NCBI GenBank assembly: GCA_946533675.1
Contig: CAMNBZ010000001.1
Location: forward strand, 64,224-128,223
Direction: 5' to 3'
Source of the DNA: an uncultured Verrucomicrobiota bacterium
Lineage (GTDB): Bacteria; Verrucomicrobiota; Kiritimatiellia; RFP12; UBA1067
DNA length: 64,000 bases
Part shown: piece after piece, positions 13,695-22,424 of the stretch
Layout of the letters: each line of letters begins with the position of its first letter
Numbering within the stretch: position 1 is the stretch's first letter
Translations under genes and position numbers: made by a program
Notes under the pieces: model-generated
The model's database searches: none
Told to the model about the DNA's origin: nothing
Seen by the model: the letters and a program-made list of their open reading frames with translations, nothing else

Positions 13695-14248
13695 GCAAGA
13701 TTCTCCCAAGGCAGAATCTCGGCAAGCATCGGATGTTTCTGATCTTTTGGCGAGAGCGTCAGTTCTACTCCGACATCTGGCCATTTGATGCCAAGCGCCG
13801 GATCGTCGAAGCGCATGCCCCTGTCTGCTTCTGGTGAATAGAGATTATCGCACTTATAGCTGAAGAGTGTATTGTCCTCAAGGACGATAAATCCATGAGC
13901 AAATCCGCGAGGAATGAAGAACTGGCGGCGATTCTCTGCGGAGAGAGTTACGGCAACATGCTTGCCAAAGGTCGGAGAGTCTTTGCGAATATCGACGGCG
14001 ACATCCCAAACTGCGCCCTTGATTACACGAACTAGCTTTGCCTGAGTATGCGGCACCGCCTGCCAGTGGAGACCTCGTACAACGCCCTTGGATGAAAAGC
14101 TTTCGTTGTCCTGAACGAAGGTGTTTGTTATCCCAGCCTTGCGGTAGCGCTCTGCATTATAAGTCTCACAGAACCAGCCGCGTTCGTCGCCAAACACATC
14201 AGGCTCTATGATTTTCACCCCTGAGATTTCCGTATCAATGATCTTCAT
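13691..14248 (-). CDS. rfbC: dTDP-4-dehydrorhamnose 3,5-epimerase
   Basis: [43 protein letters not shown]. Confidence 0.95.
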
Positions 14249-14325
14249 ATTTCATTATTCTTTTGTTAGTATCTAATGTGTTCGTAAGTATTCGTTTTGC
14301 CCGCCTTTCAATCAGCGGGAACTAC

Positions 14326-14526
14326 AGGGTCAGACATGATTGCCACAGTAAATTACCACAGTAGTTTTTCCTTCCATGGCGCCCCATCGACGCATTCGCA
14401 GCGCATATTGCCATTCACAACCGGTCGCTTCTCCAGCACAAGCACCTTGCGCCCCGCCTCCGCGAGCCGCCTCGCCACCGTGCATCCCCATATCCCCGCA
14501 CCTGCAACTATCGCATCAATTGGCAT
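14326..14526. repeat. repeat A, left copy (direct repeat of 18803-18898 plus 19084-19150)
   Basis: By-eye alignment: agggtcagacaTgattgccacagtaaattaccacagtagtttttcc... and ...caccttgcgcccCGcctccgcGagccgcctcgccacc..., with scattered substitutions. Confidence 0.8.
14353..14526 (-). pseudogene. 57-codon remnant of an FAD/NAD Rossmann N-terminus (UDP-galactopyranose-mutase-like)
   Basis: Manual translation gives MPIDAIVAGAGIWGCTVARRLAEAGRKVLVLEKRPVVNGNMRCECVDGAPWKEKLLW*. It has a GxGxxG motif plus an acidic residue ending the beta-strand, and is truncated. A second, interrupted copy lies at 18850-19150. Confidence 0.45.
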
Positions 14527-14744
14527 TTACACTTTCTCCTTTCACCAACCCAATCCCCAATCAGCACCATCAATCCAAATCTCTCCTTCCATCCTCCTCC
14601 GCCCCATCATCCATAAGCCAGCAATACGCACCATCATCGAAAATGGTGCGCACCCAAACCTCCAGCGGTGCGCAGGGCGCTCAAGAGTGAAGTTACTCCT
14701 GCCATATTATTCGTGCAATCCGACAACACCTTCTCCATAGCGAT

Positions 14745-14855
14745 TTAGTTCGAGTTCGAGATGATTTAATTGGAGTTTAGAGTTCGAGTTCGAGAGAGGA
14801 ATGGTTCTTCTTTTTTATATCCACCGCCCCATCATCCCTTACCCAGCAATAAGAA
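14745..14855. repeat. repeat B, left copy (GAGTTC-hexamer run plus a cccatcat..acccagcaata block)
   Basis: Similar to 18680-18770. A partial extra copy of the cccatcat block lies at 14598-14655. Confidence 0.6.
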
Positions 14856-14947
14856 GTCTTTCCACGCAGTGGTACTGATGAGAATCCTATGGTTAGGAGA
14901 CAAAGGGTTTATCGTATCAGTGTTTGTTAATTCTCTCGATTCATAGA

Positions 14948-15754
14948 TTATATTGTTCTGCCCAAACATTCAAATGCCTTTACAATCCCAGCAACTAAAC
15001 GCTTGTGGGATTCTGTTGTCGCGAATCGAACCGCTGCATCCAATAAAACCTGAGAATTATACGCTGGACGACAATCTGTCTTCTTATGAGTAATTCGTTC
15101 GTAAATCTGAAGCAGACTCTTCCCTCTGAATACCAACTCAAACGATTCAAGGATTGATTTAACAACCGAAGGATCTGGCTCCTTAAAGTTTTCTCTTAAC
15201 AATTCGTCCTCGTTCAATTCAACAATAAGAGTACTTCTGTCATCATACCTTTCATTAATTAACTGGTGTATTGATGGCCAACTATGTTTTTCGCCAATCA
15301 TGTTGCGATATTCGTATACATAAAACGCATACCATCTTGATAAAGCCTTTTTAATTAGCAAAATCCGTTCTCTTTCAGGCGAAGAAAACAACCTATGGAT
15401 GCATGATCCCACTAATATATCGTTCTCAATTGAATAGCCAGCTGTAAGCACCAAACCTTTGTACTTCTCAGGCACACCAAATATTACCCATAAGTCTTTA
15501 TCTGCAACGCAAACAATATTAGTTGCCCCAACTCGTTTTGCCTCTTCATAGCAACGCAAGACCGCATCCTTACCACCAACTGCCGTAAAATACACCTTGT
15601 CCTTAAGATCACTCTCCATTTTTTTATAGCATACAATATCATACGATCCTTCAACGATAACAGACAGTCGATCCGAATGTGAGGCCTCGCCTATGAGCTC
15701 AAACGCTTCAAATTCTGGATCCTGATTTACATTTAGTATATCACTTGCGGACAT
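14948..15754 (-). CDS. DUF4435 / TOPRIM-like protein (AriB-like putative nuclease effector)
   Basis: SVIVEGSYDIVCYKKM (EG..D), NIVCVADKDLW (DxD) and GYSIENDIL (IEN) match the DUF4435 motif pattern. It lies 12 nt downstream of the ABC ATPase. Confidence 0.65.
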   Translation of the reverse strand: MSASDILNVNQDPEFEAFELIGEASHSDRLSVIVEGSYDIVCYKKMESDLKDKVYFTAVGGKDAVLRCYEEAKRVGATNIVCVADKDLWVIFGVPEKYKGLVLTAGYSIENDILVGSCIHRLFSSPERERILLIKKALSRWYAFYVYEYRNMIGEKHSWPSIHQLINERYDDRSTLIVELNEDELLRENFKEPDPSVVKSILESFELVFRGKSLLQIYERITHKKTDCRPAYNSQVLLDAAVRFATTESHKRLVAGIVKAFECLGRTI

Positions 15755-15766
15755 GACACCCCCAAC

Positions 15767-16897
15767 TCACTCATTCTCTCCACGATTTGCATCTAAAAAA
15801 TATTCATTCCTAGGATAGCGCGTATATATAAATGGTGAGTGCGTGGCGATGATAAATTGATTAGATGTCTCTTGGGTTAAAAGCCGGTCAAATAATCTTC
15901 TTTGCCAACATACATGTAAATTCAACTCAGGCTCGTCCACAAAAATAATTGTATTCTTTGAAAAAGCGTTATACGTCAAAAAACTCAACATTTGTTTTTC
16001 TCCGGCAGACAGTGCACTCGCGCTTACTGGGCTGGAACCATCACCAAGAATCACCCCCTCACCAATTGTTACTCCACTATTCTTGAATGTTTCTGCCACC
16101 AAATTGCTTAATTCATCTAATGGTTTGCGCATTTTCGCACATTCCTCTTTCAATCCATCCAACTTCTTCTCAATTTCAAAAAGGGCTTTGCGAGCATCAG
16201 TATCATCAGCATTTTTGTTGCGCTGATTCAATGCTCTTTCAATGTATTTAGAAAACTCTAAGTAAAGGTGATTAACATTAGCATTTATTTCATTGTTTAC
16301 GCTCAACAACATCCGTTCAACATCCTTTGTCCCTATAGATGATATAAACTTGTGCTTGCAAGTACTCAAGGCTAAAGAGAAATTATTAACTGCATATGCC
16401 AATTCATTAATCGTTGGCATACGCCTTTTTCGCATATGAAGTTCATCTGCCGTCTCAAAGCCTCCTTCAATGCGCCTAAATGTCGGGAAATATATCGTGT
16501 CTTGCACTATATTAGAAATAGAATCATTTAATGCCTCAAGTTTTCGCCATCCATTAGGAGATATTGCTTCTGAATCATACAAGACATCATAGGACACAGG
16601 ATCCACATTCCCGTCAGGCAAGGACACTGTAAATCGAGCCGCTCGCGGACCTGATTTTACATTTTCATAATCGGGCAACACTTCCAACCTGTATTTATCA
16701 GTCTCGACCACAGCCCTATCAAATACCATTTCAGTAAGGGGAATGCTTTTGTTCGTAGAAAGAAGGCACCATAACAGTTTTAGTATGCTTGTTTTCCCCG
16801 ACCCATTAAGACCTGTCAACACCGTTAGATCCTCATGAAAATCTATTTTATGGTTAATTTTGCCATACAAGCCATAAACTTCAAAACTCTTTACCAT
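15767..16897 (-). CDS. ABC/SMC-like AAA ATPase (AriA-like)
   Basis: Walker A LTGLNGSGKTSILK, signature LSAGEKQMLSF, Walker B IIFVDEPELNLH, H-loop IIATHSP, with a coiled-coil insert between the lobes. Strong SD (GAGGAGGTGATATG). Confidence 0.8.
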   Translation of the reverse strand: MVKSFEVYGLYGKINHKIDFHEDLTVLTGLNGSGKTSILKLLWCLLSTNKSIPLTEMVFDRAVVETDKYRLEVLPDYENVKSGPRAARFTVSLPDGNVDPVSYDVLYDSEAISPNGWRKLEALNDSISNIVQDTIYFPTFRRIEGGFETADELHMRKRRMPTINELAYAVNNFSLALSTCKHKFISSIGTKDVERMLLSVNNEINANVNHLYLEFSKYIERALNQRNKNADDTDARKALFEIEKKLDGLKEECAKMRKPLDELSNLVAETFKNSGVTIGEGVILGDGSSPVSASALSAGEKQMLSFLTYNAFSKNTIIFVDEPELNLHVCWQRRLFDRLLTQETSNQFIIATHSPFIYTRYPRNEYFLDANRGENE

Positions 16898-16906
16898 ATC
16901 ACCTCC

Positions 16907-17788
16907 TCAAAGATTGATAATATTGGTTACGGCATATATTGGATGTCTTCTTCCATCCCCATTGTACTTATTACAACAGAATTTATGAGTTTCTGATACA
17001 TAAACAGAAAATCGACCGGAATTATCGTCAATCACAACAGTTCCAAAATCCTTTACATTAACCTGAAAGACATCATTCAATAAAGAAGATCTTATAATAT
17101 CTGCACCTGCAAGCCCATAAACAATTATTTTGGGTCTTAAAACGTCCTTAATAATATCTATACTTTTCGCTAATGCTGCATTGTCCCTAACTACAAGAAT
17201 ATCAATATTGTCCAATTTTGCACGCACCGTAGAATTTGTCGCCATCTCAAGAAATGTTCGCCTTCCTACATCCCCTGCGACTACTATTTTTTGCCCACTT
17301 GTAGACTTTGCCAAAAGAACAATTGCAGCATCATTTGTATCTAAGCCATCCATAGATATCAAGCCTTGCGATGGCGAAAGCACTTCAAAATTTGCATGTG
17401 GAGATGAGTACCCCGTCTCCACCCTTATTGAGCGGCAAAAATCGCTATGGCGATCTAAAATAAGATCTCTATACAAGTCATAGTCTTTTTCGTCGTCCAA
17501 CGTAGTAGCATCCCATCTATCGGCAAAAACGCCAGGATGCCAGAAATTCCTAAACCCCACCCCTCGATAAAGAGCATTTAATCCATCCATACAGTCCTTC
17601 TTTGGGCAAGTCAGAATGAATCGTGCCAGACCATTTATCGACATATCCAATAAATAATTTATTGGATGATTGTACCCATCAGGAGCGTTTGCATTCCCTG
17701 CGCAAATATCAACAATAGAAGCACTCCCATTGTCATGCTTGAAAATGGTTGACATCCCTCTCAAGAGTTTTAAAATGTGCAGTTCCAA
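16907..17788 (-). CDS. metallo-beta-lactamase-fold (ComEC-like) protein with substituted metal ligands
   Basis: ILTCPKKDCMDG aligns to the MBL motif THPHADHIGG. NDAAIVLLAKSTSGQKIVVAGDV aligns to N.sSlVl....iLltGD. DILVVRDNAA sits in place of LkvpHHGS. TTG start 5 nt after AAGGAG. Confidence 0.5.
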   Translation of the reverse strand: MELHILKLLRGMSTIFKHDNGSASIVDICAGNANAPDGYNHPINYLLDMSINGLARFILTCPKKDCMDGLNALYRGVGFRNFWHPGVFADRWDATTLDDEKDYDLYRDLILDRHSDFCRSIRVETGYSSPHANFEVLSPSQGLISMDGLDTNDAAIVLLAKSTSGQKIVVAGDVGRRTFLEMATNSTVRAKLDNIDILVVRDNAALAKSIDIIKDVLRPKIIVYGLAGADIIRSSLLNDVFQVNVKDFGTVVIDDNSGRFSVYVSETHKFCCNKYNGDGRRHPIYAVTNIINL

Positions 17789-17790
17789 GA

Positions 17791-18666
17791 CTACTCCTTC
17801 AAGGCACTTTCACATTGTTCTGGCTTAGTTGAAGAAAATACAGCCCTAACTCTTTCTGCTGCAATGTTTACCTTTTTGCAGATTGATTTTGATGGCGCCC
17901 TCCCTTTTTTATATGAGTACAGTATCGCGGCATCCAACTCTTTTCGCAATTTGTCTGCAGATTCTTTTAGTGCATTAATCTCATCCGGCGACTCGTTATA
18001 ATGGCTCAACCACCCTGGTATGCGTGTCAATGTTCTTAAACCCTCGTCTATCCCATATAAAACGTAACGAGCCTTGTATCTACATTCTTCCAAGACTTTG
18101 CGCTGCTCATCTGCTTTTTCACGCCATTTATTTAAGGATCTTTCAAAATCAGCTTTCTGCCTTTCGCCTATCAACAGTTCTTTATCATGAGACAGTTTCA
18201 ACCCATACATGTTACAACAAGCAAGTAATTGATACATTGCACCACCAATTTTAGCGTCAAACTCGGCAAGACGAGACCTATAAGCCATTTTATAGTCTTG
18301 GCCAGATTTAAAGGCAGAAACTAAACAATTACCCACTAATGCAACTAAAGCTGCGGCGAGCGCCCCATATGCGGCAGGAATAGTCATCCACCAATTGCCA
18401 CTAATATCCTTGTTACTTGATGGCATCTCTTCCGCTTTACACAACAACACACTTTCAGCACTTGTAATCTCTGAGGGACAGACCACATTGGTGGATTTTA
18501 GGGTGGTAGAATAATTTAGTACTGCCACATTATTCGTGTGATTCAATGCCCCCCTCTCCATCGCATTCGTGTCAACGGCATTCACCCACACTTGCGGCGC
18601 ATCATCCGCGCGGCAAATCCCCGCCGCACAACAAAGCAATACAATTATGGCAAAACCTTTCTGCAT
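17791..18666 (-). CDS. hypothetical membrane protein (signal peptide, one TM helix, helical cytoplasmic tail)
   Basis: MQKGFAIIVLLCCAAGICRA signal peptide, TM helix WWMTIPAAYGALAAALVALVGNCLVSAF, and a charged helical C-terminal half. First gene of the cassette. Confidence 0.7.
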   Translation of the reverse strand: MQKGFAIIVLLCCAAGICRADDAPQVWVNAVDTNAMERGALNHTNNVAVLNYSTTLKSTNVVCPSEITSAESVLLCKAEEMPSSNKDISGNWWMTIPAAYGALAAALVALVGNCLVSAFKSGQDYKMAYRSRLAEFDAKIGGAMYQLLACCNMYGLKLSHDKELLIGERQKADFERSLNKWREKADEQRKVLEECRYKARYVLYGIDEGLRTLTRIPGWLSHYNESPDEINALKESADKLRKELDAAILYSYKKGRAPSKSICKKVNIAAERVRAVFSSTKPEQCESALKE

Positions 18667-18679
18667 TCTATCTAACAGT

Positions 18680-18770
18680 AAAGTTGGAGTTACGAGTTGG
18701 AGTTCGAGAGCGGAATGTTTCTTATTTTATCCTCTTCCGCTCCCATCATTCATTACCCGGCGAATACACC
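18680..18770. repeat. repeat B, right copy
   Basis: gagttggagttcgagagcggaatgtttcttattttatcc..cccatcattcattacccggcgaatac resembles 14775-14855. Confidence 0.6.
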
Positions 18771-18802
18771 CTTTCATCAAAATGGTGCTACGGGGCCAAG
18801 AG

Positions 18803-19150
18803 GGTCAGACTTGATTGCCACAGTAAATTACCACAGTAGTTTTTCCTCTCATGGTGCCCCGTCGACGCATTCGCAGCGCACATTGCTATCCGCAACCGGC
18901 CACAAACCTTTCGATTTACCTCTTCGCATATCGTTTATTCGCACCCCTGGGGGTGAGGAGGTCTTACCCCTAGGGGTGAGAGGGCCTTACCCCTAGGGGT
19001 GAGAGGGTGTTACCCCTAGGGGGAGCGAGACGGCGCCCCCCGGGGATGACATCCATGGGGAAACAATAGGGAACACAATGGGGTCAGCACCTTGCGCCCA
19101 CCTCCGCAAGCCGCCTCGCCACCACACATCCCCAGAGGCCCCTACCGGCT
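18803..19150. repeat. repeat A, right copy, split by an insertion of about 185 bp (18899-19083)
   Basis: 18803-18898 and 19084-19150 align to 14326-14500. The intervening segment is absent from the left copy. Confidence 0.75.
18942..19033. repeat. 4 x 23-bp tandem repeat with a palindromic CCCCTAGGGG core
   Basis: Units at 18942, 18965, 18988 and 19011: tacccctaggggtgagaggg(cct/tgt). The outer units are degenerate. Confidence 0.9.
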
Positions 19151-19228
19151 CCACATTCTTCTTAATCCTGCCTGTCAAGCCTGTCTAAAATCTACGCGGG
19201 CGGCGCGTTGAGGACAACGCGCCCTACC
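19140..19228. repeat. about 90-bp direct repeat R3, left copy (contains a REP-like hairpin)
   Basis: ccctaccggctccacattcttcttaatcctgcctgtcaagcctgtctaaaatctacgcgggcggcgcgttgaggacaacgcgccctacc. Confidence 0.85.
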
Positions 19229-19294
19229 AATCCGAAAATCAAACAATTCTTAATCCTGCCTAAAACTTCCACACGCTCCACATGCTCTACACGG

Positions 19295-19492
19295 CTATGA
19301 CCGAGCTACCGGAATATAGCTGTAGACTGTGCGATCCATACGCGGAAACGAAGAGCCGTCGTGTGCCGCCGACCACAAGTCGCCGATCAATTTTGTCGCG
19401 ACCGCAAGGCGCTCGGAGTCATCAAGAGCCAGAGCCCAGGAATAGTCTTCCTTCTCGTCTTCCATTCTCAGCACTCTCACGGTCTTCGTCAT
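19295..19492 (-). CDS. small hypothetical protein (65 aa), ATGA-coupled to the upstream 57-aa ORF
   Basis: MTKTVRVLRMEDEKEDYSWALALDDSERLAVATKLIGDLW. ATG 19490-19492 verified. Confidence 0.4.
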   Translation of the reverse strand: MTKTVRVLRMEDEKEDYSWALALDDSERLAVATKLIGDLWSAAHDGSSFPRMDRTVYSYIPVARS

Positions 19493-19662
19493 TTCCTGCA
19501 GCCCTCCAGTATCTCTACGTCAGCCAGGTCTTTTGCACGACCCGAAGCCTTCTTGTTGGCTATCAGATCCTCAAGCGAGATCAGCCGAACAGGAATGCCG
19601 TCTGTATTATACCATATCCGACCTTGGAACTTCAACCACGTCGACGCCCCTACCGGCGCCAT
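19489..19662 (-). pseudogene. 57-aa ORF resembling only the C-terminal end of a nucleotidyltransferase-type (MNT/antitoxin-like) protein
   Basis: Manual translation gives MAPVGASTWLKFQGRIWYNTDGIPVRLISLEDLIANKKASGRAKDLADVEILEGCRK*. The ...SLEDLI..K.ASGR.KD..D...L tail motif is present and the N-terminus lies inside repeat R3. Confidence 0.35.
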
Positions 19663-19738
19663 ATTCTTCTTAATCCTGTCAATCCTGTCTAAAATCTACG
19701 CGGGCGGCGCGTTGAGGACAACGCGCGCGAAGCGGGCT
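19647..19738. repeat. about 90-bp direct repeat R3, right copy
   Basis: cccctaccggcgccatattcttcttaatcctgtcaatcctgtctaaaatctacgcgggcggcgcgttgaggacaacgcgc. Confidence 0.85.
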
Positions 19739-19753
19739 TTGCACACTGCTTTT

Positions 19754-19860
19754 CGTGAACACGCGTATTCAGTTTCGCGGACATGCGTATTCAGTTTCGT
19801 GAACATGCGTGTTCACGATTGCGGATATGCATATTCACGATTGCGGACATGCGTGTAAAA
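19754..19860. repeat. iteron-like array: 5 tandem units of 22 bp with core G(A/G)ACATGCGT(A/G)TTCA
   Basis: Units start at 19754, 19776, 19798, 19821 and 19843. GAACATGCGTGTTC is near-palindromic. Confidence 0.85.
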
Positions 19861-19955
19861 ATCTACAGATCAGCCTCGGTAGAAACCCTGATCTGACAAA
19901 TGCGTAGTCATTGACGATAAGATCAGAGGCGTCCGCCAGTTCCCTGGCCTTTGCT

Positions 19956-20228
19956 TCAGGCATACGACACCTCGACTTTCTTGATTGGCGAAAGAAATTT
20001 CTGGACGTCCATGCACAAGTTCTGCAAGATCGGGATAAGATCGATATATTCCTCTTCCGCGCGCCCGTTATAGCGCGCCACGACTTCCAGATACCCGTTG
20101 TCCCACTTGTTGACTTTCTCGTACCGATCCAGGCGCGGCGATGTCGCAAAGCGTATGACATCCGTGCCATACGTGAATGACGTATAGTTTCCTTTGCTGG
20201 AAAGCGTCGCTATGCCGTCGACATTCAT
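19956..20228 (-). CDS. hypothetical protein (90 aa from ATG; the track ORF starts at ATT 20294)
   Basis: MNVDGIATLSSKGNYTSFTYGTDVIRFATSPRLDRYEKVNKWDNGYLEVVARYNGRAEEEYIDL... has protein-like composition. A TGGTATAAT promoter lies at 20265-20273 just upstream. Confidence 0.45.
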   Translation of the reverse strand: MNVDGIATLSSKGNYTSFTYGTDVIRFATSPRLDRYEKVNKWDNGYLEVVARYNGRAEEEYIDLIPILQNLCMDVQKFLSPIKKVEVSYA

Positions 20229-20264
20229 GAAAGCCTTGCTCGCGATACGTTTTTTAATATCCGT

Positions 20265-20273
20265 ATTATACCA
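20265..20273 (-). promoter_or_regulatory. extended -10 element TGGTATAAT
   Basis: Reverse complement of ccgtattatacca, about 35 nt upstream of ATG 20228. Confidence 0.4.
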
Positions 20274-20448
20274 TTTACGGTGTCGCGCAGTCAATGACCG
20301 ACACGCGGCGGAATCCGTCTAGAATACGTCCCCGTGGTTTGCAAAAACGCTCCGCGCCCGTCGAGTATGCAGGCAGACTCGACCCAAGACCCATCCCGTG
20401 GGCGCCGACAGGTGATGAACTTCCGCACATAACCTGATGTAGGAGGGA

Positions 20449-20463
20449 ATAATATATCAATTG
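20449..20463 (-). promoter_or_regulatory. extended -10 motif ATTGATATATTAT
   Basis: Member of the TGATATAMTAT motif family seen before other operons in this window. Confidence 0.3.
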
Positions 20464-20629
20464 GTTCGCAGGCAAGAAATTTGCGCAAACCCGTTTTGCG
20501 GCGTGCTGCGCAGAAAAAAGGTTCTGCGCAGCGCGTGTTTCTGCGTGTCCCGGCCCCGCCGCGCCACACGCGATTTTTCGGCGATCGCCCTTGATTCCGT
20601 TCAAATGATTTGATATATCGTTTCTCGTG

Positions 20630-20759
20630 CCCCGGCGAACCGCCGAAAAAGCAGCTCGCCCGCAGCGATAAGCATCCCGGCGAACCGCCGAAAACGCGAC
20701 TCGCCTGCAACGATTTGCACCCCGGCATCCCGCCGGAAAAGACGGCCGCGCCTAGGCAT
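20630..20759. repeat. 3 tandem units of about 45 bp (cccggcgaaccgccgaaaa..) abutting and overlapping the integrase stop
   Basis: Units 20630-20675, 20676-20720 and 20721-20759. The third is degenerate. Confidence 0.85.
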
Positions 20760-22050
20760 CGGCGAGAATCTGCTGCCGCAGCACGGTGAATTCGTCCGCG
20801 CTGATCAGGCCGCGCTTCTTCGCCTTTTCCAGCTCTCTGAGCCGCGCGCAGAGCATGGGCCGCCCGCCCGTCCGGCTCCGGCCCGCGCCTCCGCCCGCGC
20901 CCCCGCCCGCGCGCATCCCCGCCATCCCCGCCGTCCCCGCCCGCGCGCCGCCGCCGAGCGACGGAATCGCGGAGACGGCCTGGCGCAGCGCGTCCTCGCT
21001 CGGATGGTAGTAATGGCGCGTCATCGCCGTCGACGCATGACCGACGATCGACTGCACCGTCGCCAACGGCACGCCCGCGTTCACCGCGATGGACACGAAC
21101 GTGTGGCGCAGTGAGTGGAAGGTCGCCAGCGGCGTGCGCCGCTCGCGCCCCTCGAGGCGTACGCTCGTCTCGATGTTCGCCGCGCGGAAGATCCGTTCGA
21201 GCCGGCGGCTCACCCGCCACCGGTGCCGCGCGAAATCGCGCGCGATGGATTCCATCACGAATCCGCGGCGGTCCACGGGCCGCGTCTCGCCCAGCAGCGC
21301 CGCCAGCTCCGGATGCAGCGGGATGACGATGCTCCGCCCGGCAAAGTAGCGGCGCGTCTTGTGCGGGACGATCCGGATGACGGACGCGGCGAGGTTTACC
21401 GCCTCCCAGCCGAGGCGGCAGCAGTCGCCCAGCCGCATCCCCGTGTAGATCGCGAGCGAAAAGAGCATCCGCCAGTCCCGCCCGAAGCCGTCGGCCGCGG
21501 CCAGCAGCCGCCGCACCTCGTCCAGCGTCAGCTCGCGCCGCGTGCAGACGGGCCCCGCCTTCACCCGGATGCCGTCCCAGGGATTCTTCGCCGCGTCCCC
21601 GCCGCCCGCGAGCAGCGCGCGGAACATCTCCCGCAGGCAGCAGATCCGCAGCGCGCAGGTGATCGGGGCGTGCCCGCCCCGGAAGAACGCGAGATACTCC
21701 TCCGCCATCGCGCGCGACACGCCGACTGGCTCCGTGACGTCCGGATGCGCGCCGCTGAGCCAGACCGAGAAGTGCAGCCACGCCCTGTACTTCGCGGCCC
21801 GCGCGCGCGGGTCGAGGCGGACGGCGAACACCGACGCCTCGTAGCGCGGCCACGCCCGGAGCAGCGCCGCGCGCGCCCGCACCCGTCGGCAGCCGCAGTC
21901 CGCAATCACGACGAGCCGCCCGAGCGACGCCTCGGCCTCCGCCCGTATGCCCGTGCCGGTCGCGCGGCTGTAGGTCTTGCCGCCGACGCGCACGCGCGCC
22001 GTCCATGTTCCGTTCTTTTCCTGCTGGAGACTTCCTCTTGTTCGGGCCAT
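20752..22050 (-). CDS. int: tyrosine-type site-specific integrase
   Basis: HSLRHTFVSIAVNAGVPLATVQSIVGHASTAMTRHYYH (the HxxR...Y catalytic region). N-terminal MARTRGSLQQEKNGTWTARVRVGGKTY. ATG 22048-22050 has GAGGAA 8 nt upstream; the track start at 22068 is GTG. Confidence 0.9.
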   Translation of the reverse strand: MARTRGSLQQEKNGTWTARVRVGGKTYSRATGTGIRAEAEASLGRLVVIADCGCRRVRARAALLRAWPRYEASVFAVRLDPRARAAKYRAWLHFSVWLSGAHPDVTEPVGVSRAMAEEYLAFFRGGHAPITCALRICCLREMFRALLAGGGDAAKNPWDGIRVKAGPVCTRRELTLDEVRRLLAAADGFGRDWRMLFSLAIYTGMRLGDCCRLGWEAVNLAASVIRIVPHKTRRYFAGRSIVIPLHPELAALLGETRPVDRRGFVMESIARDFARHRWRVSRRLERIFRAANIETSVRLEGRERRTPLATFHSLRHTFVSIAVNAGVPLATVQSIVGHASTAMTRHYYHPSEDALRQAVSAIPSLGGGARAGTAGMAGMRAGGGAGGGAGRSRTGGRPMLCARLRELEKAKKRGLISADEFTVLRQQILADA

Positions 22051-22090
22051 TTTATGATTCCTCGGCACAGCGGGTCGTGGGGATTTCGGG

Positions 22091-22125
22091 AAAAAAGAAA
22101 ACTCCCAGAACTTTCATTCTGAGAG
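22091..22125 (-). terminator. rho-independent terminator after tRNA-Ser
   Basis: On the minus strand: CTCTCAGAA-TGAAAG-TTCTGGGAG followed by TTTTCTTTTTT. Confidence 0.6.
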
Positions 22126-22139
22126 CCTTGCGCCAGTAT

Positions 22140-22229
22140 TGGCGGAGGGGGGGGGATTCGAACCCCCGGTGGACTTGCGCCCACACAACCTTTCCAAGGT
22201 TGCACCATCGACCACTCGGACACCCCTCC
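22140..22229 (-). tRNA. tRNA-Ser (GGA)
   Basis: Reverse complement GGAGGGGTGTCCGAGTGGTCGA..CAACC-TTGGAAA-GGTTG..long variable arm..GGGGGTTCGAATCCCCCCCCTCCGCCA. Anticodon loop TTGGAAA; CCA encoded. Confidence 0.9.
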
Positions 22230-22256
22230 AGTCGCTTCTTCTTCGCCCGCCCGCGG

Positions 22257-22339
22257 TGCCAGGAGCGGGACTCGAACCCGCACATACTCTCGTATAGCAG
22301 ATTTTGAGTCTGCCGCGGCTGCCATTACGCCACCCTGGC
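22257..22339 (-). tRNA. tRNA-Leu (CAA)
   Basis: Reverse complement GCCAGGGTGGCGTAATGGCA..GCAGA-CTCAAAA-TCTGC..variable arm..GCGGGTTCGAGTCCCGCTCCTGGCA. No CCA encoded. Confidence 0.9.
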
Positions 22340-22350
22340 TCATCGGACCG

Positions 22351-22424
22351 TGGAGCGGGCGAAGGGAATCGAACCCTCGTAGCCAGCTTGGAAGGCTGGA
22401 GCTCTGCCATTGAGCTACGCCCGC
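22351..22424 (-). tRNA. tRNA-Gly (UCC)
   Basis: Reverse complement GCGGGCGTAGCTCAATGGCAGAGCTCCAGC-CTTCCAA-GCTGG..GAGGGTTCGATTCCCTTCGCCCGCTCCA. Confidence 0.9.

Follow-up and report, generated by a model that had tools for sequence, protein, structure and literature searches.

The locus examined here raises a simple question: which of four closely packed genes belong together, and to what kind of system? They lie at positions 14948-18666 of a 64,000-nucleotide (nt) stretch of contig CAMNBZ010000001.1 from an uncultured Verrucomicrobiota bacterium; the whole stretch is called the window below. A preliminary description had taken them for one operon, in which an ABC ATPase and a DUF4435/TOPRIM protein resembling the anti-phage system PARIS follow two unexplained partners, a membrane protein and a metallo-beta-lactamase (MBL)-fold protein. 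The genes are:

18666..17791, minus strand: g1, membrane protein of 291 amino acids (aa), with a signal peptide, ~70 extracytoplasmic residues, one transmembrane helix and a ~170-aa cytoplasmic helical domain
17788..16907, minus strand: g2, MBL-fold protein, 293 aa, TTG start
16897..15767, minus strand: g3, ABC ATPase, 376 aa
15754..14948, minus strand: g4, DUF4435/TOPRIM protein, 268 aa

We consider it about 65% probable that positions 14948-17788 (g2-g3-g4) are a three-gene anti-phage cassette of the PARIS/OLD-like class, with a dead MBL protein as third subunit, inserted beside the unrelated g1. Of the two unexplained partners, g2 emerged as a real partner and g1 as a bystander, which makes the locus less unusual than first proposed.

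The gene calls were confirmed: all four genes are co-directional on the minus strand, with gaps of 2, 9 and 12 nt. Shine-Dalgarno (SD) sequences had been placed inside the preceding gene ends; this is correct for g2 only, whereas those of g3 and g4 lie within the short gaps. The TTG start of g2 is supported by a GAAGGAG SD sequence 5 nt upstream, by a 59%-identical homologue (P0002) that aligned with g2 from residue 1, and by the structural model, in which the MBL fold opens with a beta-strand made of residues 1-11.

g3 and g4 form a PARIS-like pair

PARIS is defined as an AAA_15/AAA_21 ATPase plus a DUF4435 protein, encoded by two genes or as a single fusion (Rousset et al. 2022, PMC9122126). 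The translation of g3 carries all nucleotide-binding motifs intact, as originally noted: Walker A (GLNGSGKTS), signature (LSAGEKQ), Walker B (IIFVDEPE) and H-loop (ATHSP). In Pfam, g3 matched AAA_15 (81.3 bits, 1.4e-22) and AAA_21 (78.6 bits, 1.1e-21), both above threshold. Its top three PADLOC matches were AriA models (9.9e-28 to 6e-24), ahead of PtuA, GajA and NsnB, and the best PDB sequences were AriA chains (8ux9/8v45/8v46, 4e-17), matched over residues 282-362 only.

In g4, the EG..D / DxD / IEN pattern described earlier is present as VEG..D, DKD and GYSIEND and was kept invariant across 27 homologues. In their alignment (A3), E35, D85, D87, G106-Y-S-I-E-N-D112 and R210-G211 were invariant and K212 nearly so. 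The PADLOC AriB model matched g4 at 2.9e-7, and PF14491 (DUF4435) was present in most g4 homologues. A PDB sequence search with g4 alone returned nothing useful. When its AlphaFold2 model (predicted local distance difference test score, pLDDT, 87.4) was used in a fold search, AriB provided the only significant PDB matches (8ux9_A, 4.9e-5, and 8v46_D), with the TOPRIM region of OLD (6nk8) next. Given the AAA_15/AAA_21, AriA and AriB matches, the TOPRIM residues and the fold match of g4, the two distal genes are a PARIS-like ABC ATPase and DUF4435/TOPRIM pair, in agreement with the preliminary description.

g2 is a degenerate MBL-fold protein

No Pfam, NCBIfam or PHROG match was obtained for g2, and a PDB sequence search with g2 alone yielded nothing useful. 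Its matches to PDC-M48B were weak (7.3e-7 and 5e-6, compared with 4e-35 for canonical members). PDC-M48 is a PADLOC candidate system consisting of a membrane protein with four transmembrane helices (A) and a ComEC-like MBL protein (B). A single-sequence search of 5.8 billion proteins returned only two relatives of g2, P0002 (59% identical) and P0003 (25% identical). The latter is labelled ComEC, scores 4e-35 on PDC-M48B, and also matches models of the MBL-type Lamassu protein LmuA and of the MBL associated with defence-associated reverse transcriptases (DRT; model RTasMBL). A profile built from g2, P0002 and P0003 recovered more than 1000 standalone MBL proteins of ~330 aa. These relationships place g2 as a probable divergent, distant member of the PDC-M48B MBL nuclease family. 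In phage and plasmid collections, no g2-like gene was found except one canonical family member on a Burkholderia replicon.

The AlphaFold2 model of g2 was of high confidence (pLDDT 88.6; predicted template modelling score, pTM, 0.90). Its best PDB match in Foldseek was the beta-lactamase-like domain of ComEC (9ic4, E 3.2e-12, TM-scores 0.67/0.73), and further fold matches were to Pce, tRNase Z and RNase J. The protein is thus predicted to have a ComEC-type MBL fold (alpha-beta/beta-alpha).

An MBL fold with substituted metal ligands had been proposed for this gene, and alignment, model and fold search all agreed with the proposal. Relative to the family, g2 carries H61C, D63K, H66C, H175G and D176R and lacks the HHG motif through a deletion. 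At these five positions P0002 has C, I, N, G and R, and it shares the HHG deletion. The near-invariant family motifs HPDMDH, GDAHD and APHHGR are therefore replaced or deleted in both proteins, although the replacements in the first motif differ (CPKKDC in g2, CPIKEN in P0002). With nearly all metal ligands gone, g2 is best read as a pseudo-enzyme, judging from the aligned sequences.

We also considered that g2 might still be an enzyme, that is, a hydrolase with an unconventional (e.g. Cys/Asp) site acting as a second effector beside the TOPRIM nuclease. C61, D/E65, D27, D68 and D173 are kept in both orthologues, and in other defence systems, relatives of this MBL family act as DNase effectors (PMC12799240, PMC12642450). 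However, six near-invariant ligand positions of the family are lost, HHG being deleted, and positions 63 (K/I) and 66 (C/N) differ between the orthologues. Moreover, there is no protease partner of the kind that gates related zymogen MBLs. An active g2 therefore seems improbable.

g2, g3 and g4 are conserved as a unit

The only other copy of the cassette that we found is carried by the four metagenomic contigs encoding P0002 (L001-L004). There, an MBL-like gene (291 aa) is followed after 9 nt by an ATPase gene (383 aa) and after a further 10 nt by a DUF4435 gene (265 aa); the gene order is the same as in the window and the 9-nt spacing between the first two genes is identical. No g1 homologue was present on these contigs. 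The idea that homologues of the second gene co-occur with ATPase and DUF4435 pairs elsewhere was thus upheld by L001-L004, in which g2 is a conserved and selected partner. The L001 cassette has an AAA_15+DUF3696 ATPase, two caspase-like peptidases and a helix-turn-helix protein as neighbours, which is a defence-island setting.

Protein identity between the window and L001 was 59% for g2, 69% for g3 and 48% for g4. Synonymous sites were saturated, and the ratio of nonsynonymous to synonymous substitution rates (dN/dS) was ~0.15 for g2 (against P0002) and 0.09 for g4. The three genes are under purifying selection. As the same ligand losses are shared, the inactivation of g2 would predate the split between the window and L001 lineages, with the protein kept afterwards. 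An intact reading frame, purifying selection, fixed tight linkage and the same ancestral ligand losses together indicate that g2 is probably a functional component of the cassette, not debris.

An MBL partner of ATPase and DUF4435 pairs is nevertheless rare. We retrieved another 81 DUF4435 loci, both metagenomic ones and ones on viral contigs; when a hidden Markov model (HMM) of the MBL family was run over all their open reading frames (ORFs), matches were confined to L001-L004. Among 59 distinct ATPase+DUF4435 loci, 31 had at least 1.1 kb of DNA upstream of the ATPase, and in none of these 31 was an MBL-family gene found there; mostly, no tightly coupled gene stood upstream at all. The nearest relatives of g4 (P0122, P0124 and P0125; 40-47% identity) are encoded on contigs of 1-2 kb, which stop at the ATPase or shortly upstream of it. 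On one contig of the P0124 lineage (L014, 1-42; 41% identical to g4), an ORF of which ten codons are visible stops 9 nt before the ATPase start, as between g2 and g3.

In three metagenomic loci (L047, 668-2095; L055, 483-1691; L099, 868-2091), the ATPase+DUF4435 pair was tightly coupled behind HsdS of a Type I restriction-modification (R-M) system. These are PARIS-like pairs embedded in R-M operons.

A rival reading is that the pair is a two-gene PARIS-like system with an unrelated neighbour, and that g2 is a decaying PDC-M48-like relic without a role. The lost metal ligands, the absence of the canonical PDC-M48A membrane partner and the plain two-gene organisation of the nearest outgroup DUF4435 loci are all consistent with this reading. 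However, the g2 ORF is intact in both lineages despite saturated synonymous sites, with a dN/dS of 0.15, its spacing to g3 is identical in both, and it is more conserved than g4. In addition, the shared ligand losses put inactivation before the split, with the protein kept since, and the g2 model is well folded. We therefore regard a functionless g2 as unlikely.

An insertion placed the cassette behind g1

A contig from a Kiritimatiellia metagenome-assembled genome, found in a genome scan (L019; JAZQGX010000070.1), encodes a g1 protein 96% identical to that of the window. There, 155 nt separate g1 from a full-length glf (360 aa), a polysaccharide cluster comes next, and g2-g4 are absent. L019 1654-2570 corresponds to window 18732-17810 at 95% nucleotide identity, and L019 2637-2866 to window 14625-14396 at 90%. 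Since the homology breaks at ~17810 and resumes at 14625, the window carries an extra ~3.2 kb (about 14626-17810) with g2-g4 relative to L019. The cassette is mobile, and its presence is polymorphic between these close relatives. The junction features are:

17789..17810, minus strand: left junction of the insertion, a cassette-derived leader with the GAAGGAG ribosome-binding site of g2, which has replaced the g1 stop and the six codons before it
14626..14947, minus strand: right part of the inserted segment, non-coding, with repeats D6 and D7
14397..14526, minus strand: 5' remnant of glf (UDP-galactopyranose mutase), ~43 codons, aligning to the start of the L019 glf

At the left junction, the L019 homology stops after ...CAATGTGA (window ~17810), 19 nt before the g1 stop. 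The g1 C-terminus accordingly reads ...QCESALKE* in the window and ...QCDCG* in L019, and the new 22 nt resemble the leader of the L001 MBL gene. The insertion replaced the last six codons of g1, and the 2-nt gap between g1 and g2 is its product. Two stretches of g1 recur in degenerate form in the right part of the insert, namely its upstream region (14770-14814) and its 5' coding sequence (14690-14741).

The g1 protein had no Pfam or PADLOC match. An exhaustive search of its family gave 271 representatives, mostly ~185 aa long, with an N-terminal transmembrane helix and the motif RYxLWGxDxGLRTLTRxPxW. In 14 other genomes, the neighbours of g1-family genes varied (a trypsin-like peptidase, a PIN_12 protein, a luciferase-like oxidoreductase and unknowns), and in none of the 14 did an ATPase+DUF4435 pair lie beside them. 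An HMM scan of DUF4435 loci likewise detected no g1-family ORF. The preliminary description had asked whether homologues of the first gene neighbour such pairs elsewhere, and in these two surveys they did not. As L019 has g1 without g2-g4 and L001-L004 have the cassette without g1, g1 lies outside the unit and is a resident neighbour, not a conserved component of the system. A further candidate relationship, in which g1 would be a PDC-M48A homologue and g1+g2 a PDC-M48-like pair, was rejected on the basis of an hhalign probability of 0.6% and the HMM scan.

These data also bear on the original proposal that all four genes could be one functional operon or membrane-linked defence system; g1 would then be a membrane sensor or effector coupled to the PARIS-like core. 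The 2-nt gap, the SD sequence of g2 inside g1 and the lack of a separate promoter element between the two genes would suit it, and an MBL beside a membrane protein is a known theme, as in canonical PDC-M48 with its small membrane protein. Nevertheless, g1 occurs without g2-g4 in L019 at 95% nucleotide identity, g2-g4 occur without g1 in L001-L004, and the junction shows that the tight spacing came from insertion into the 3' end of g1. The variable neighbours of g1-family genes and the lack of relationship to PDC-M48A also argue against it. A four-gene system is thus distinctly improbable.

The leader of g1 (residues 1-60, window 18487-18666; MQKGFAIIVLLCCAAGICRADDAP..WVNAVDTNAME) was 58-79% identical in the otherwise unrelated proteins P0184, P0194 and P0237 (421 aa), and a degenerate copy of this N-terminal leader sequence is what lies at 14690-14741. 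The pattern points to a secretion or sorting leader that is specific to the lineage and moves between genes by shuffling.

Proposed mode of action

In PARIS, AriA sequesters AriB until a phage anti-restriction protein causes its release and the cleavage of tRNA-Lys (Burman et al. 2024, PMC11464382). By analogy, we infer a defence function and a PARIS-like mechanism for g2-g3-g4. The AriA-like g3 would hold the AriB-like nuclease g4 inactive, and an infection cue would lead g3 to release it. Released g4 would then cut tRNA (probably) or other nucleic acid, resulting in abortive infection.

In this scheme, g2 would be a lineage-specific third subunit descended from defence effector nucleases (PDC-M48B; Lamassu and DRT MBL effectors). 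As its metal-binding site has been lost, g2 is most likely non-catalytic and may serve as an adaptor, a trigger sensor, a decoy, or an extra lock or stabiliser of the ATPase-nuclease complex. Since g2 would descend from DNA-cutting defence effectors, it may bind either DNA or a phage factor directed against effectors of this type, and then signal to the ATPase.

In this reading, the cassette arrived as a 3.2-kb insertion that separated g1 from glf, where a variable polysaccharide locus begins in a Kiritimatiellia-like genome. Fused to the end of g1 by this insertion, it is probably expressed from the g1 promoter and co-transcribed with g1. The locus would then illustrate how a defence cassette can land at the start of such a variable region and make use of the expression signals of its neighbour.

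A more specific version of the decoy role, which we consider quite unlikely, is that g2 is an integrated decoy, a silent copy of a common defence effector nuclease kept as bait. This bait would be bound by an MBL-binding factor of the phage, such as an inhibitor directed at MBL effectors, whereupon g3 would free g4. If true, this would extend the PARIS principle of sensing anti-defence proteins to a new trigger class through a dedicated third subunit.

Comparison with known defence systems

The likeness to PARIS lies in the adjacent, co-directional ATPase and DUF4435 TOPRIM genes, in their intact motifs (both the TOPRIM acidic residues and the Walker and signature motifs) and in the best matches being AriA and AriB. 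The published PARIS rule (PMC9122126) uses AAA_15 of at least 32 bits or AAA_21 of at least 27 bits, with an adjacent DUF4435 (PF14491) of at least 27 bits. Both ATPase scores of g3 exceed these values, whereas the DUF4435 score of g4 was 24.5 bits (2.8e-5), 2.5 bits under the cut-off. The profile matches expected from the preliminary description were accordingly significant for g3 (AAA_15, AAA_21 and AriA) and only partly so for g4, which was recognised by the AriB model but fell below the DUF4435 cut-off.

This low score is one of several points that weigh against a PARIS/OLD-like cassette with a dead third subunit. The g3 protein is ~90 aa shorter than Escherichia coli AriA (376 aa versus 464 aa), and its sequence match to AriA is confined to the C-terminal 80 residues (282-362). 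The PARIS complex has the composition AriA6:AriB3 and is activated by anti-restriction proteins such as Ocr; given the shorter g3 and its C-terminal match only, this architecture may not apply to g3-g4. The TM-score of the fold match between g4 and AriB was also modest (0.42-0.47). For g2, the retention of C61, D/E65 and D173 in both orthologues makes a residual single-metal site conceivable. Finally, the three-gene form is present in only two independent lineages, so the co-occurrence statistics are thin.

In composition, the cassette differs from PARIS. Published PARIS phylogenies contain two-gene and fused forms only, in 11 clades, and the canonical PARIS ATPase senses the phage trigger itself, whereas here a conserved dead-MBL gene lies upstream of the pair in both lineages. 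In the literature searched, no paper named DUF4435 together with MBL and none mentioned PDC-M48. The cassette is a three-gene PARIS variant, so far from two lineages, and this form is new relative to the published two-gene and fused systems. If the pseudo-nuclease g2 is an obligatory third subunit, the cassette would illustrate how PARIS-type systems can gain sensing or regulatory modules, by recycling a dead effector from another defence family. The locus would then also offer a simple comparison of two-gene and three-gene versions for the contribution of the inactive MBL domain.

With PDC-M48, the cassette shares g2 as a putative distant member of the B family. However, canonical B proteins keep HPDMDH/GDAHD/APHHGR, the ligands lost in g2, and are always preceded by the ~165-aa membrane protein A, which is absent here; the partners of g2 are instead an ATPase and a TOPRIM nuclease. 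In three canonical loci, PDC-M48A is ~165 aa long with four transmembrane helices and lies 2-12 nt upstream of the MBL gene (L005, 297-806; L006, 4483-4989; L007, 4502-4996). These pairs stand in defence islands with MmeI-type R-M, toxin-antitoxin pairs, BrxR and a ThiF/E2/JAB protein.

ComEC-like MBL genes have repeatedly been recruited upstream of nucleoside triphosphatase (NTPase) sensors as protease-activated DNase zymogens (PMC12799240, PMC12642450, 10.1101/2025.09.03.673762). The position of g2 resembles that of such protease-gated DNases (HamM, the Avs- and retron-associated MBLs) and of Lamassu LmuA, a ComEC-like MBL gene standing upstream of an NTPase sensor. Unlike these, g2 is degenerate, and it is the TOPRIM nuclease that serves as effector. 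Pfam, NCBIfam and PADLOC searches detected no protease domain (trypsin-, caspase- or subtilisin-like) in g1-g4. With no protease and a dead MBL, the protease-gated mechanism is not applicable here.

OLD nucleases, Gabija GajA, and Septu and retron PtuA share the AAA_15/21 ABC ATPase clade and TOPRIM chemistry with g3-g4. They differ in that the ATPase and TOPRIM are separate proteins here, and no UvrD (GajB), HNH (PtuB) or reverse transcriptase is present.

Genomic setting and flanking elements

The cassette was described as the most AT-rich stretch of the window, and this was correct: GC content is 0.388-0.400 at 15-18 kb, the minimum of the window, compared with 0.42-0.52 in the adjoining polysaccharide genes and 0.60-0.74 beyond 20 kb. 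On the lower-coordinate (downstream) side lie rmlC, rmlA, an acyltransferase, an epimerase, a GT2 glycosyltransferase and a flippase. On the upstream side, a tyrosine integrase (20752-22068; Phage_integrase 3e-24, SHOCT-like tail) adjoins a tRNA-Ser(gga)/tRNA-Leu(caa)/tRNA-Gly(tcc) cluster (22140-22424), and GC steps from ~40-48% to 60-73% across this region (20752-22424). From the low GC, the integrase and the tRNA cluster, the polysaccharide and defence segment from 1 to ~20 kb looks like an integrated island.

This setting allows another explanation, namely that the genes are not for defence but are a housekeeping or polysaccharide-locus accessory ATPase/nuclease set. The cassette does stand at the head of a polysaccharide biosynthesis cluster, and a distant DUF4435 pair in L018 also lies within one. 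However, presence/absence polymorphism between close relatives, anomalously low GC, the defence-island context of the L001 copy and best matches that are PARIS components throughout all argue for defence, and viral contigs and Type I R-M loci are further places in which DUF4435 pairs are found. We consider a non-defence role highly improbable.

Repeats and gene-remnant DNA had been reported on both sides of the cassette, and both direct repeats and the glf 5' remnant were indeed found in flanking positions. One repeat element is present in two copies:

18791..18870, minus strand: copy 1, ~65-80 nt long, 125 nt upstream of g1
14316..14396, minus strand: copy 2, at the very point where the glf remnant breaks off, 68 nt upstream of rmlC

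The element consists of a tandem direct 13-mer, TTACTGTGGYAAT twice, followed by ...CAATCAWGTCTGACCC; an exact 26-mer has just two occurrences in the window, against an expected 0. Further copies were found at L019 1-58 and at L001 5091-5158, 9627-9695 and 9902-9953, one of the three L001 copies being 48 nt upstream of the MBL gene. In every case, the first gene of a group follows the element at a distance of ~50-170 nt and in the same orientation, and the element occurs at rearrangement breakpoints. This distribution suggests a candidate lineage-specific promoter/operator, of which copy 1 would serve g1-g4, and perhaps also a recombination site or hotspot. An integron attC site was considered and rejected, as the tandem direct 13-mer has no imperfect inverted repeat. 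An Rfam scan of 14000-20500 returned no RNA family, and the flanking repeat matched no known RNA. Scans for sigma-70 promoters and intrinsic terminators performed no better than on shuffled sequence.

Other repeats lie between g1 and the integrase. An 88-nt direct repeat (19135-19222 and 19643-19726; 92-98% identical) contains a perfect hairpin, GCGCGTTG-AGGA-CAACGCGC, and its copies enclose two small ORFs on the minus strand (19295-19492 and 19489-19662) without Pfam match. At 18943-19045, within an upstream copy of the glf remnant, there is a 23-nt tandem repeat, ACCCCTAGGGGTGAGRGGG, in four copies with a palindromic CCCCTAGGGG core. Between the small ORFs and the integrase region, a 22-nt tandem repeat, TTTCGYGRACAYGCGTRTTCAS, is present five times (19751-19860); its copies could be iterons or arm-type recombinase binding sites.

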